Assembly (NCBI GenBank): GCA_011390155.1
Contig: JAABSW010000001.1
Location: 58,953 to 122,952 of the forward strand
From: Clostridiaceae bacterium
GTDB taxonomy: Bacteria; Bacillota; Clostridia; Peptostreptococcales; Tindalliaceae
Reading direction: 5' to 3'
Length of the DNA stretch: 64,000 bases
Positions 37,735 through 64,000 of this stretch are shown in pieces. The first letter of the stretch is position 1. Every line of letters starts with the position of its first letter. The notes beneath the pieces are model-generated. The model was not told the origin of the DNA. It saw nothing but the letters and a program-made list of their open reading frames with translations, and did no database searches. Both the position numbers and the translations under genes were made by a program.

Positions 37735-39057
37735 ATGAAGAAACTAAAAGTGGTTCACTACATTAATAATTTTTTTGCAGGTATTGGCGGGGAGGAAAAA
37801 GCAGGTATTTCACCCGAAGAAAGAGATGGAGCGGTGGGCCCAGGAATGGCACTGGCTCAAGCCTTGGGTGAAGAGGCTGAAATTATTGCCACTGTTGTTT
37901 GTGGAGATTCATACTTCGGAGAAAACCTGGCATCAGCTGAGAAGGATATTGTAGCCATAATCCGAAAACATCAGCCAGACTTGGTGTTTACAGGTCCTGC
38001 TTTTAATGCCGGGCGGTATGGTGTTGCCTGTGGAGCGGTGGCAAAAGCAGTGGAAGAGCAACTGGGAATCCCCGCAGTCACTGGTATGCATGAAGAAAAC
38101 CCCGGAGTGGACATGTATCGAAAAGACCTTTATATCATTAAGACAGGTCATTCAGCTGCAGGCATGAAAAAGACCGTTACATCCATGGCTTCCCTTGGAT
38201 TGAAAAGGGCCCAGAATCAGTTGGTCGGACCTCCAGAAGAGGAAGGTTACCATGTTCGCGGTATGCGTATAAACTACTGGGCAGAAAAACGAGCCTCCCT
38301 AAGAGCTGTTGAGATGATTTTGAAGAAGGTAAAAGGAGAAGCATATCAAACAGAATACCCCATGCCTGATTTTGGGCGAGTAGAACCTATGCCCCCTGTG
38401 TTGGATTTTTCAAAAGCAAAAGTGGCGATCGTTACATCAGGGGGAATAGTGCCCACAGGCAACCCTGACAGAATCGAATCTTCCAGTGCTACAAAGTATG
38501 GGATCTATGATATCAGTGGATTGGATTCTATGCCGGCAGATGATTACACATCCATTCACGGTGGATATGATAGAACTTATGCCCTGGAAGATATCAACCG
38601 CGTTGTGCCATTGGATGTTATGAGAGACCTTGAACGGGAAGGCATCATTGGAAAACTGGCAGATTATTTTATTTCCACCACCGGTACAGGCACTTCTGTT
38701 GGCAGTGCCAGGGCATTTGCTGTCGATTTCTCCAATAAATTGTTAGAGGATGGCGTAAATGCTGTCATTCTTACCTCCACCTGAGGTACCTGTACACGTT
38801 GCGGTGCAACGATGGTAAAAGAGATTGAACGGGCAGGGATTCCGGTGGTACACATTGCCACGGTGGTGCCCATCGCTTTAACAGTAGGAGCTAACAGGAT
38901 TGTACCGGCCATTGGCATACCGTATCCCCTGGGAGATCCTTCCCTGGGAGATGAAGGAGAAAAAAATATTCGTAGAGATTTGGTGGAACGGGCACTGAAA
39001 GCACTGGGCACTCCCATCAAGGGCCAAACTGTCTTCGATGATGCATATGAATTTTAA
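37735..39057 (+). CDS. grdB: Selenoprotein B of glycine/sarcosine/betaine reductase; TGA 38782-38784 read as Sec (residue 350)
   Basis: Track ORFs 37735..38784 and 38812..39057 are in frame. The junction reads AVILTST-U-GTCTRCGATMVKEIERAG, the hallmark UxxCxxC motif. Hairpin CGTTGC-GGT-GCAACG at 38797-38811 is a SECIS candidate. Confidence 0.9.
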
Positions 39058-60516: not shown

Positions 60517-60727
60517 GTACATCCCTCCATATTTGTTAATTGCTTTACAATGATCAATTCTATGGTATGCCTGGTGACAGTGTATGTCAAGGGATAACAT
60601 ATTGTCGTGATAAGACATTATCGATAGCAGCTGATTCTTGCCAACCAGTTACGAAATACCTGAGAAGTTATTTCAAATGATAAGCCTCTCATCCATGTTG
60701 ATCATGTAACATGGATAGAGGCTTACT

Positions 60728-61009
60728 TTATCGGCTAATATTATTTTTCTGTGTTTTTTCAACAGCCTCCTGAATGAGGGCAGGCATGGTGAAAATGGAT
60801 GGGACCCTTCCTTGGACAATGGTCTCACCATTTACCGTCAACACAGGCATCTGGTCAAAGTTTTGTCTGTTGATTTCCATTGGACTGCAGACTAAATGCA
60901 CAGACGCCTTGAGACCAAGACGTTTCACTGCCTCATCAACGATGGGCTTCATTTTGCTGAAACCTCATCCGATGTCTTCATAGATGACGATTTCCACTGG
61001 TGTGGTCAT
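60728..61009 (-). CDS. Thioredoxin-fold 'redox-active disulfide protein 2'-like selenoprotein (UxxS); TGA 60965-60967 read as Sec
   Basis: The track ORF (60728..60952) starts at an internal Met with no RBS. Extending upstream in frame gives MTTPVEIVIYEDIG-U-GFSKMKPIVDEAVKRLG... with RBS GAGGGGTG 5 nt before the ATG at 61009. U aligns with the first Cys of the family's GCxxC. A 7-bp hairpin lies directly 3' of the UGA (60945-60964). Confidence 0.65.
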
Positions 61010-61013
61010 TCAT

Positions 61014-61526
61014 TCACCCCTCTTTCTTTCCATTGGCAACCAGTATAGCGGAGGCTCCCCTGTCCACAGCAATCATACCTGTACGAACCAGTTCCTTGAT
61101 GCCAAAGTCCCGGAGCATTTCCTCCAAGGCAGCCAATTTTTTACTATCTCCAGTCACCTGGATGGTGACGGAGTTTTTCGTGATATCAACTACTTTTTCA
61201 CGGAAGATGTTAACGATCTCAACAATTTCGTTGCGGGTTGAGGGGGTTGCGTGTACCTTGATTAAAGCAAGTTCCCGTGCGATGGACTCATCACTAATGT
61301 TGGAAACTTTGATGACATCAATGAGTTTATTCAGTTGTTTGGAAATCTGTTCCAGTATATATTCATCGCCGTCAGCAACGATGGTAATGCGAGAGACCTC
61401 CGGGTCTTCCGTGACACCTACTGCAAGGCTGTGAATGTTGAATCCTCTTCGGCTGAACAGCCCCACCACTTTGGATAAGACGCTGGGTTTGTTTTCCACC
61501 AGGATCGCCAGTATGTGTTTTTTCAT
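61014..61526 (-). CDS. ilvN: Acetolactate synthase small (regulatory, ACT-domain) subunit
   Basis: HILAILVENKPSVLSKVVGLFSRRGFNIHSLAVG... 170 aa, directly downstream of ilvB. Confidence 0.9.
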   Translation of the reverse strand: MKKHILAILVENKPSVLSKVVGLFSRRGFNIHSLAVGVTEDPEVSRITIVADGDEYILEQISKQLNKLIDVIKVSNISDESIARELALIKVHATPSTRNEIVEIVNIFREKVVDITKNSVTIQVTGDSKKLAALEEMLRDFGIKELVRTGMIAVDRGASAILVANGKKEG

Positions 61527-61538
61527 GGTTTCACTCCT

Positions 61539-63194
61539 TTACGCTTTCTCAGCGGGGATAACGTTGGACACTGGATCAATGATGAACTCTGCAACCATGG
61601 TTCCATCATAAGACAAAAGCTTATCAATGGCTGCTTCAATTTCCTCAGACCTGGTTACCCGAATGGCATGGAATCCATAGGCTTCCGCCAGTTTTACAAA
61701 ATCAGGGTTACCCTTCAGTGTCGTTTGCGTATAGCGTTTTTCGCAATTATGTTCCTGTAATTCACGAACCATGCCAAGGCAACTATTGTTCAATAGAATA
61801 ATCTTGATGTCCAAGCCCTCCTGTGCAGCAGTGGCCAATTCTGTTAAATTCATCTGAAAACTGCCATCTCCTGTGATGAGAGCCACCTGTTTGTCCGGTT
61901 GTCCTATTTTAGCACCGATGGCTGCGGGTAAACCATATCCCATGGTGCCCAGGCCGCCTGATGTTAAAAAAGTGCGAGGCTTCTCAAACCCATAATACCG
62001 GCCGGTCCATACCTGATGCTGGCCTACGTCGGTGGCAACAATGGTGTCATTTGATGATTTTCGAGACAATGTTTTGATGATTTCCATAGGGTCCAGTCCA
62101 TTGGCACCATCACCGGCACCGGTTCCCTTTGTGAATTTTTTCCAATTTTGGACTTGTTGTATCCATTCCGGATTTTCCCGGTGAAATTCCTGCGACAGCA
62201 GGCCCTGCAGGGTATTCTTTATATCTCCGACAATGGGGATATGAATGTCAATGTTCTTACCGATTTCTGCCGGGTCCACATCAATGTGAACAACAGTGCG
62301 GGCTGACTGGGCGAACTCCTCACGTTTTCCTGTAGACCTGTCTGCCATGCGTGAACCCATGACGATGAGAAAATCGGCTTCAGCGACGGCCTGCTTCGCC
62401 GGGTAAACACCATGGTCCCAGCCCAGCATACCCAGGGAGAGGGGGTGACTGGAAGGGAAGGCCCCAATTCCCATTAAGGTAGTGGCAACAGGCGCTTGCA
62501 TCCGTTCTGCAAAGGCAATCAGTTCCTCTGTAGCATTGGCGATCACACCACCGCCCCCCACAATGATCATTGGTTTTTTGCTTTCCATCATGGCGCTAAC
62601 AGCTTTTTTAATCTGTCGTGGATGTCCCTTGGTGGTAGGTTTATAACCACGCAAATCAATACTGTCAGGGTATTTGAAATCCATTGTGTCCAGTTGAATA
62701 TCTTTGGGAATGTCAATCAGTACGGGTCCGGGTCTTCCGGTGGAGGCAATGTGGAAAGCTTCCTTAAAAATTCGTGGGAGGTCTTTAATGTCTTTCACCA
62801 GGTAATTGTTTTTCGTAAAGGGTTCTGTTGCACCGGTGATATCAACTTCCTGAAATACATCCTTACCAATGAGATCGGTTCCCACCTGTCCGGTGATGGC
62901 CACCATGGGAATGGAGTCCATGTAAGCGGTAGCAATGCCGGTGATCAGGTTGGTGGCGCCTGGTCCCGAGGTAGCCATACACACCCCTGTTTTTCCTGTG
63001 ACGCGGCTGTATCCACTTGCAGCATGGGCAGCACCTTGTTCGTTGCGTACCAGTACCTGGCGAATATCTGACTGAATAAGAGCATCGTATAGAAATAAAT
63101 TGGCGCCTCCAGGATAACCGAAGAGCACTTCGACACCTTCTGCCTGAAGGGATTTTACCATACATGCTGCGCCATTGATTTTCATTTTCTTCAC
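61539..63194 (-). CDS. ilvB: Acetolactate synthase large subunit (ThDP-dependent)
   Basis: GAACMVKSLQAEGVEVLFGYPGG, TSGPGATNL and ThDP motif GDGSFQMNLTELAT...NN. Confidence 0.9.
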   Translation of the reverse strand: MKKMKINGAACMVKSLQAEGVEVLFGYPGGANLFLYDALIQSDIRQVLVRNEQGAAHAASGYSRVTGKTGVCMATSGPGATNLITGIATAYMDSIPMVAITGQVGTDLIGKDVFQEVDITGATEPFTKNNYLVKDIKDLPRIFKEAFHIASTGRPGPVLIDIPKDIQLDTMDFKYPDSIDLRGYKPTTKGHPRQIKKAVSAMMESKKPMIIVGGGGVIANATEELIAFAERMQAPVATTLMGIGAFPSSHPLSLGMLGWDHGVYPAKQAVAEADFLIVMGSRMADRSTGKREEFAQSARTVVHIDVDPAEIGKNIDIHIPIVGDIKNTLQGLLSQEFHRENPEWIQQVQNWKKFTKGTGAGDGANGLDPMEIIKTLSRKSSNDTIVATDVGQHQVWTGRYYGFEKPRTFLTSGGLGTMGYGLPAAIGAKIGQPDKQVALITGDGSFQMNLTELATAAQEGLDIKIILLNNSCLGMVRELQEHNCEKRYTQTTLKGNPDFVKLAEAYGFHAIRVTRSEEIEAAIDKLLSYDGTMVAEFIIDPVSNVIPAEKA

Positions 63195-63204
63195 TCCTTA
63201 TCTG

Positions 63205-63530
63205 TCATTGATTTAATATATTTTTTGTATAAAAAAACTGCCTCATCCCAAAGGGACGAAACAGATTCTGTTCGCGGTACCACCCAAATTTCCCGTGTAA
63301 TGAACACAGGACTCTCTAACCTCTGAAGCAATGCTTCAAAAGCGGAGTCTGTTAACGAAGACCAAGCGCAGCAATCTACTTAAATTGTCAGATATTCTGC
63401 CAATTAGTTGGGTGCTGACCCTCAGGAGAGAGTGAAATGAGACTTTCTGCCGATTTACACCAACCACCGGCTCTCTGTGAGAAAGCAATTCATTTGTGGG
63501 CTCCTTCATTGGGTATTCGATAAATAATGT
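63205..63530 (-). promoter_or_regulatory. T-box riboswitch leader (probable Leu specifier CUC) with terminator, upstream of ilvB
   Basis: Minus-strand reading. AGAGAG box; specifier-loop candidate GAAAGUCUCA (CUC is the complement of 63439-63441). Conserved T-box AATTTGGGTGGTACCGCG (complement of 63273-63290). 12-bp terminator stem plus T7 (about 63228-63263). Confidence 0.8.
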
Positions 63531-63538
63531 TATCGCTT

Positions 63539-63567
63539 ACAATACCATCATCATTTAACTTTGTCAA
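63539..63567 (-). promoter_or_regulatory. Sigma-70-type promoter driving the T-box leader
   Basis: Minus strand: TTGACA (complement of 63562-63567), 17-nt spacer, TGgTATTGT extended -10 (TATTGT is the complement of 63539-63544). Confidence 0.55.
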
Positions 63568-63711: not shown

Positions 63712-64000
63712 GTGAAAATCATTGTTGATGCAGATGGATGTCCTAAGGGCGTACTTAAAGCCTGTCTTCAGTTAGGTAAACGATATAACATAATAGTATG
63801 GACCGTAGCCAACGTGCATCATAACATTCAGTCAGATCACCATATTGTTGTTGACGGTGCTTCTCAACAGGCTGATCTGAAGGTGATGAACACGTCTAAA
63901 CCGGGAGACCTGGTGGTGACACAGGACTGGGGCCTTGCTGCCCTGGTGCTGGGAAAGGGTTGTCGCTGTATTCATCCTTCTGGAAAAGAATACCAGAATG
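63712..64000 (+). CDS. YaiI/YqxD (UPF0178/DUF188) family protein, C-terminus off the window
   Basis: GTG start after [33 protein letters not shown]...[30 protein letters not shown]. No stop before the window end. Confidence 0.7.

Follow-up and report, generated by a model that had tools for sequence, protein, structure and literature searches.

The 64,000-nt stretch of Clostridiaceae bacterium DNA analysed here (contig JAABSW010000001.1; the whole stretch is referred to as the window) carries, behind the acetolactate synthase genes ilvB and ilvN, a small thioredoxin-like gene with an in-frame TGA. All locus coordinates refer to the minus strand of the window unless marked plus. A T-box leader is located at 63249..63518 (Rfam RF00230, 98.7 bits against a gathering score of 93) and precedes ilvB (61539..63194), the first cistron, which codes for the large subunit and whose orthologues contain TPP_enzyme_N/M/C domains and are 81-94% identical (tblastn). 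The second cistron, ilvN (61014..61526), codes for the small subunit, its orthologues containing ACT/ALS_ss_C domains, and ends with the TGA at 61016-61014. This stop codon is overlapped by a Shine-Dalgarno sequence, GAGGGGTG (61015..61022), which lies 5 nt before an ATG at 61009-61007. The third cistron (60728..61009) runs from this ATG through 93 codons to a TAA at 60730-60728, and its 15th codon is the TGA at 60965..60967. Reading through that TGA as selenocysteine (Sec, U) gives a 93-residue product that opens with MTTPVEIVIYEDIG-U-GFSKMKPIV.

The public protein record for this gene (P0001) is a 74-residue form that starts at the internal ATG at 60952-60950. A first-pass annotation, made from the DNA letters alone, had proposed a small thioredoxin-fold selenoprotein mis-called from that internal Met. 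Its layout was verified: the ATG at 61009, 5 nt after a Shine-Dalgarno sequence overlapping the ilvN stop, by its coordinates in the sequence; the in-frame TGA and the 93-residue product by the reading frame; and the place as third cistron of a T-box ilvB-ilvN operon by the RF00230 match and the gene order. Its statement that the internal Met has no Shine-Dalgarno sequence was slightly overstated, as GAGG, formed by UGA-GG itself, sits 10 nt upstream. The core of the proposal is strongly supported by comparative evidence, and we consider it highly probable that the window gene is a real, mis-annotated selenoprotein gene in which UGA 60967-60965 is decoded as Sec. The subfamily to which it belongs, with the motif [C/G]-U-x-x-S, is widespread in clostridia.

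Conservation of the TGA and the frame upstream of it

In the public collection, the proteins of the closest relatives are found only in a shortened form of 66-74 residues. At the DNA level, all four close-orthologue loci keep the in-frame TGA and, upstream of it, the conserved peptide M..PV.I.I[YF]ED.G together with a Shine-Dalgarno sequence. A profile search in the same order gave 33 genes matching with one internal TGA, in 31 of 201 genomes and 6 of 12 families, and [C/G]-U-x-x-S stands at the same place in all 33 translated matches. A strict DNA pattern, searched in one genome per species across 185,579 species, returned 21 matches, 19 of which are further family members; the remaining two (Tepidisphaeraceae and Muribaculaceae) were rejected as chance. 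The hosts of the subfamily belong to the Peptostreptococcales and Tissierellales, with Anaerosolibacter carboniphilus, Alkaliphilus transvaalensis and Caloranaerobacter azorensis among the carriers in culture.

The Sec position is TGA in 36/36 aligned sequences and never TAA or TAG across the two orders. Given that the codons just before it vary synonymously (ATC/ATT, GGA/GGC/GGT, TGT/TGC), the upstream stretch is under protein-level selection, and purifying selection was seen to either side of the TGA in many genera. Most members have an ATG precisely 10 codons ahead of the TGA, as a rule preceded by an AGGAGG-like Shine-Dalgarno sequence, and Shine-Dalgarno-like sequences are found before the upstream start of almost every family member. 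Residue 20, the internal Met of the window gene, is unconserved outside the genus and is Leu, Ile or Val in other clades, indicating that the annotated start is not the conserved one. Diverged strain-variant contigs covering 60965-60967 showed no change at the UGA. A low-depth DNA contig from sediment metagenome run X5 joins 60817 to 60912, skipping 94 bases inside the gene; with a likeness of 85%, it may come from another organism.

Two outcomes had been named in the first-pass annotation as speaking against a selenoprotein, namely orthologues that lack a conserved upstream frame and an N-terminal extension that is unconserved as protein. Neither is the case: the frame and its TGA are kept, and the peptide is conserved while its synonymous sites vary. 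A search for Cys at this codon in orthologues had also been advised, and Cys forms were indeed found. G004, a 100% complete genome without selA, has C-C-R-G-S at the Sec site and P0015 has C-C-K-G-S; in the tree, both nest inside the Sec clade.

The genome carries selA, selB, selD and tRNA-Sec, all on contig C28 and with scores over the curated cutoffs, and both selD itself and grdA contain a TGA. Since TGA is the ordinary stop of ilvN only 48 nt upstream, it has not been reassigned. Of the other Sec genes that had been claimed for the window, the one we examined is a grdB-type paralog at 37741-38784 (plus strand), with its Sec-TGA at 38782-38784 (...TST-U-GTCTRCGAT), after which comes a 6-bp hairpin whose GGU triloop lies 18 nt beyond the TGA. 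This Sec-TGA/hairpin design recurs in the genome's three other grdB paralogs. Among the 31 TGA-holding genomes, selA was found in 28, and the three without it are 63-79% complete; this co-occurrence hardly discriminates, because the background is 158 of 201 genomes.

Candidate recoding hairpin, fold and active site

Two hairpins downstream of the UGA were compared as candidates for the selenocysteine insertion sequence (SECIS), using an alignment (A4) of 63 nt around the UGA from 36 genes. The 7-bp hairpin immediately 3' of the UGA (60945..60964), which the first-pass annotation had singled out, does exist and folds at -8.6 kcal/mol; a SECIS role across the family goes instead to the next hairpin. 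The first one is restricted to the genus, with 67.5% of the cells paired across the family, about as good as a control slid by +1, and its loop starts 7 nt after the UGA, failing the published spacing rule. On these three counts it was rejected, and it is probably not the element bound by SelB. It overlaps the internal AUG, and we speculate that it may suppress internal initiation by covering it.

The second, bacterial SECIS (bSECIS)-like hairpin, at 60930..60947 (alignment columns 27-44), is built of a 4+3 bp stem containing a bulged A; its triloop, GUU (60940-60938), lies 24 nt past the UGA. Across the family 94% of its cells are paired, against 25-52% in slid controls, and both sides are changed in 15 cells, at 4 pairs, a count reached by 0 of 500 shuffles. 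In one such compensation, a change from Ile to Val (AUC to GUC) is accompanied by the synonymous change of Asp GAU to GAC; in another, Pro CCC to CCU is accompanied by GAG to AAG or AUG, so that the opposing G becomes A. The published bSECIS constraints are a loop of 3-9 nt with a G among its two leading nucleotides, an upper stem of 4 bp or more, a distance of 16-37 nt from the UGA and a minimum free energy (MFE) of at most -7.5 kcal/mol (PMC13188914). At -7.9 kcal/mol, the hairpin at 60947-60930 agrees with 4/4 of them. For grdB and selD of the same genome, the corresponding hairpins are of 5-6 bp with GGU or GGA triloops 17-18 nt after the UGA. Judging from covariation in the alignment, we take the hairpin at 60947-60930 as the candidate SECIS. 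Two other models were discarded. In the first MFE fold, a long lower stem engages codons that precede the UGA, a region whose bases vary freely among orthologues; a combined model (helix 10-13/26-29 plus a 4-bp hairpin) had a worse mean energy than the 7-bp bulged hairpin.

PF13192 is the only Pfam match of the protein (32.4 bits against a gathering threshold of 24.8). An NCBIfam scan at E <= 0.1 returned TIGR00412 alone, at 32.3 bits and thus short of its curated cutoff of 62, and no selenoprotein model, including NF040730. The earlier assignment to the family of 'redox-active disulfide protein 2' holds for PF13192 and for the fold, and fails at the TIGR00412 cutoff. An AlphaFold model built on 55 sequences (predicted local distance difference test score, pLDDT, 92.1; predicted template modelling score, pTM, 0.83) has the order strand 5-10, helix 20-31, strand 35-40, helix 43-49, strands 56-59 and 62-66, and helix 75-91, by which the product is predicted to be a minimal thioredoxin fold. 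The closest solved structure is MtH895 (PDB 1ILO; Foldseek template modelling score 0.73 on the target, 30% identity; profile E = 8e-24). The codons for strand 1 all lie upstream of the UGA, so a 74-residue product would be unable to adopt this fold.

The position of Sec relative to the CxxC motif depends on the alignment. In ungapped MAFFT and HMMER alignments, which keep a constant offset on the strand and helix sides, Sec falls one residue after Cys1, and it is the Cys of the sister clade that is placed on Cys1; with hhalign, Sec is matched to Cys1, for which two gaps of one residue each are needed. Ser18 falls on Cys2 in no alignment and one residue after it in every alignment. The first-pass annotation had put Sec on Cys1 and Ser on Cys2, and so its former half is borne out by hhalign only and its latter half by none. 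In the model of a CxxC relative, helix 1 begins right after Cys1 (residue 11); in the model of the Sec protein its start is shifted downstream by about 5 residues, so that Sec is surrounded by a 9-residue loop. It is safe to say that Sec occupies the active-site loop, at or beside the position of the nucleophilic Cys, and that the second Cys is gone. The Ser at +3 from Sec is invariant in the 36 aligned sequences.

The 36 sequences fall into two forms. None of the 21 C-U members has Cys41, which is present, at the end of strand 2, in all 15 G-U members (the window genus and family f5). In the tree, the Sec clade is split from 18 Cys-only relatives, 14 of them with CxxC, by a branch with 97/98 support; the G-U clade (98/98) lies inside a larger group, indicating that G-U is the derived form, and the window genus (100/99) is nested in the G-U clade. 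In the thioredoxin fold, strands 1 and 2 are parallel and the residue after strand 2 stands at the rim of the active site, as does Ile60 in Escherichia coli thioredoxin. Given that the end of strand 2 borders the active site, Cys41 may replace the vicinal Cys as the partner of Sec. We infer, with uncertainty, that the partner cysteine moved from a vicinal Cys-Sec pair to the remote Cys41.

Operon context and alternative readings

Upstream of the T-box leader lies a promoter-like site at 63539..63567 (TTGACA, 17 nt, TATTGT, with a TG extension), identified by consensus match only. The terminator stem of the leader (63264-63238) appears as a terminator-like site in the scan. No terminator was found between ilvN and the selenoprotein gene, nor elsewhere within the ilvB-ilvN-gene run. 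Right after the stop codon of the selenoprotein gene, a 19-bp hairpin (60680..60726; -28.1 kcal/mol, z = -5.2) is likely the 3' end of the operon; its U-tract is weak, and the simple terminator scan did not call it. In the leader (63249-63518), CUC triplets occur in the specifier-loop region, which is apparently consistent with a leucine specifier. A 332-nt contig from one metatranscriptome library is identical to 60766-61097 and includes the ilvN end together with the start codon and UGA of the selenoprotein gene, a weak hint of expression. The mapped sequencing data were all assembled contigs and speak for presence only; they prove neither transcription nor a single transcript, and gaps between RNA contigs carry no meaning.

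The order ilvB-ilvN-gene is found in the window and in all 7 other loci of the genus, and only this genus has the gene behind a T-box-controlled ilvBN. Across these loci the selenoprotein is 53-84% identical, against ~81-94% for ilvB, and the spacer between ilvN and the gene ranges from 4 to ~40 nt with the Shine-Dalgarno sequence always kept. The ilv operon is adjoined by a divergent DUF188-msrA pair (window 63712-64000 and beyond; L090:165-1234), the msrA being the Cys form. Downstream of the selenoprotein gene lies a nitrilase-type hydrolase gene, and in one relative the gene directly downstream is msrAB, an msrA-msrB fusion (L018:4446-5576). These msrA and msrAB neighbours hint weakly at a methionine-sulfoxide-repair, redox-repair neighbourhood.

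Neighbours were also checked in four other families (f2, f3, f5 and f11). In f5, the gene adjoins split ArsP_1-like permease genes; in f2, f3 and f11, it lies with an ArsR regulator and/or an ArsP_1 permease, plus a CxxC paralog from its own protein family. L048 and L051 have the series complete, as ArsR, permease, CxxC paralog and Sec gene. Because the genes of other families sit in such ArsR-ArsP_1-CxxC paralog modules, the ancestral job was probably in a metalloid or redox module with an ArsR/ArsP-type permease. The ilv linkage is a novelty at the genus level.

Several side observations concern these modules. In the window's own genome, a CxxC paralog (GSGCKNCKK; C36:157972-158697) lies beside an ArsR-like regulator gene, with no permease adjoining, and ArsP_1 permeases are found on C45 and C36, together with two TGA-interrupted matches on C83. 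The ArsP_1 permease gene beside the Sec thioredoxin-like gene in L048 (3536-4483, minus strand; compare L051:3506-4453) has an in-frame TGA of its own, within SPF-U-S-C-STVP; the Wukongibacter orthologue of this permease has Cys instead, giving C-S-C. The TGA-split permease of L048 resembles the selenocysteine permeases that are catalogued under the SO_0444 family (UxC).

From these features the following course can be proposed for the window gene. From the sequence and the conserved gene order, transcription begins at the T-box leader and continues through ilvB and ilvN into the selenoprotein gene. Translation, for which the comparative support is strong, would start at AUG 61009 from the Shine-Dalgarno sequence over the ilvN stop, and UGA 60967-60965 would be read as selenocysteine by SelB and Sec-tRNA, directed by the hairpin at 60947-60930. 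Sec15, in the loop between strand 1 and helix 1 that holds the redox pair of CxxC relatives, would then form a one-selenol redox or soft-metalloid-binding centre, in which the selenol would attack a substrate disulfide, sulfenate or metalloid. In the G-U clade, resolution would fall to Cys41, where strand 2 ends; in the sister clade, the partner would be the Cys immediately before Sec, giving C-U-G. The gene would have come from an ancestral module of ArsR, ArsP-type permease and CxxC paralog and moved behind ilvN in the window genus, and because of this move expression of the selenoprotein would follow the T-box signal, apparently one for leucine. A further step, with the partner Cys relocated and the gene recruited in this one genus into a leucine-sensing T-box operon, there to serve acetolactate synthase as a dedicated helper dependent on selenium, for instance by holding this oxygen-sensitive enzyme in its reduced state, is a tentative idea that we consider rather unlikely. 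If true, it would tie selenium redox chemistry to branched-chain amino-acid synthesis.

Among the competing explanations, the best survivor accepts the selenoprotein and denies its placement behind ilvBN any functional meaning: the gene would be a passenger that came to lie between ilvN and the terminator and keeps its ancestral job of the ArsR/ArsP module, be it in metalloid handling or in general redox work. We lean slightly towards this account. It is favoured by the ArsR and/or ArsP_1 permease neighbours in f2, f3, f5 and f11, with the CxxC paralog in f2, f3 and f11, by the restriction of the ilv linkage to one genus nested within the G-U clade, and by the ArsP_1 permeases and CxxC paralog elsewhere in the genome. 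Yet the linkage has been kept in the window and the 7 other loci despite a protein divergence well beyond that of ilvB, the Shine-Dalgarno sequence has survived every change of the spacer, and the msrA and msrAB neighbours hint at redox repair.

Far less credible is the view that the UGA is an ordinary stop that ends a 14-residue leader peptide, the functional product being the 74-residue protein from AUG 60952. This is the form that gene callers output (P0001-P0005), the GAGG before the internal AUG could serve it, and in two species of the genus no canonical start precedes the TGA. However, its product would be without strand 1 and the entire active-site loop, and its start codon is unconserved outside the genus. 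The supposed leader, moreover, is conserved as protein in two orders and ends always in TGA, never in TAA or TAG, and the Cys forms read straight through. We regard this reading as very improbable.

The database entries P0007, P0009 and P0011, which show W at the Sec position and belong to members with no cysteine at all, owe their full length to a gene caller that took the Sec TGA for Trp; this was checked for P0007, where the W is a TGA translated under another code (L087:3001-3291). Such entries could suggest that the UGA is read by a near-cognate or suppressor tRNA (Trp or Cys), or that a Cys form is decaying here into a pseudogene, but the P0007 residue stems from the gene caller, TGA serves as a stop in ilvN in a genome with the full Sec machinery, a covarying hairpin lies at SECIS distance, the sole complete genome without selA has Cys at the site, and purifying selection acts on both sides of the TGA in many genera, which makes this explanation equally hard to believe.

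Returning to the selenoprotein reading and the mechanism proposed with it, a number of observations weigh against them. The conserved hairpin is small, and it is shifted or weak in G120, G014, G174 and G002; RNA and protein constraints coincide on the PIVDEA codons; and the synonymous-site test within the genus was modest (p = 0.03), the covariation count being the stronger evidence. In G027 and G050 (L027 and L028), ATC replaces the ATG start, 42 nt upstream of the TGA, and no ATG, GTG or TTG is found upstream of the TGA; the ATC stands behind a perfect GGAGGTGA, and these genes have either a rare ATC start or a different start. The Ser at +3 is Asn in some Tissierellales members. P0007, P0009 and L098 (metagenomic and Tissierellaceae) have Sec and no Cys, so that the idea of a partner Cys is not universal. 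As for the operon, a neutral hitch-hike could explain the placement.

The decoding of the UGA has consequences for annotation. P0001-P0005 are deposited as a shortened ORF unable to fold, and dozens of further genomes of Peptostreptococcales and Tissierellales that carry the gene probably contain the same mis-call; a profile from alignment A7 together with the hairpin would correct many of them. The subfamily also forms a natural series, from vicinal Cys-Sec through Sec with a remote Cys and Sec alone to Cys-Cys revertants in a selA-lacking genome, which lends itself to asking what a thioredoxin fold gains from Sec and in what way a resolving residue can move. A selenoprotein under T-box control, that is, under amino-acid starvation control, is unusual.

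Comparison with known systems

Thioredoxin-fold selenoproteins are common as a class. The closest structural counterpart of the window protein is MtH895 (PDB 1ILO; TIGR00412/PF13192, 'MTH895/ArsE family'), with which it shares the Pfam family, the minimal fold and the size, and the cis-Pro and the GRVPS region are conserved in both. MtH895 and thousands of its relatives carry CxxC, whereas the window protein has G-U-G-F-S and is without the second active-site Cys.

ArsE belongs to the same family; ArsEFG of Shewanella putrefaciens was reportedly the subject of work by Chen, Zhang and Rosen in 2019. In a preprint, PF13192 proteins in ArsR-ArsP operons are called ArsE and are connected with organoarsenical resistance (bioRxiv 10.1101/2022.10.17.512643). 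The sister clades of the window gene occur in the same type of cluster, with ArsR, an ArsP_1 permease and Trx_3. By contrast, ArsE is described as a Cys protein, and the window gene lies outside this context and has no adjoining permease.

In two selenoprotein review tables (2022 and 2026), the only PF13192 entries in both are Brachyspira Sec.1 and Sec.2, and the present subfamily is absent from the two tables, the 2009 selenoproteome of Alkaliphilus oremlandii lying outside that comparison. Sec.1 (CxU) and Sec.2 (UxC) are thioredoxin-like selenoproteins under PF13192 (PMC5330540, PMC9312934, PMC13188914), with Sec in a short N-terminal extension ahead of the domain, and Sec.2 keeps CxxC (PMC5330540). 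Like the window gene, they were missed or truncated by annotation, and they too are clustered with a Cys paralog of the same Pfam family. As far as the published description sets them apart, Sec15 of the window protein lies inside the domain loop, in [C/G]-U-x-x-S and with no CxxC, and, by the same description, the subfamily differs in clade and hosts as well.

Other small thioredoxin-fold selenoproteins of anaerobic Firmicutes with Sec in the motif are the selenoprotein glutaredoxin (PF00462, UxxC) and SaoT (NF040730, UxxC). Both belong to different families, and their motif keeps the second Cys. The monothiol (CGFS) glutaredoxins, of which U-G-F-S is a literal look-alike, were considered and rejected, as Pfam gives PF13192 only and no PF00462; the G-F after Sec is itself unconserved in the family, GGS, SGS, GYS and DGS also being present.

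Mammalian thioredoxin reductase has a C-terminal Gly-Cys-Sec-Gly redox centre, and the same vicinal Cys-Sec-Gly triplet occurs in the sister clade of the window gene. By analogy, this suggests that the oxidised state of the sister-clade proteins is an eight-membered selenenylsulfide ring. The two settings differ in that the triplet of the reductase is on a flexible C-terminal tail and that of the sister clade in the active-site loop of a thioredoxin fold, where the window protein has Gly in place of the vicinal Cys.

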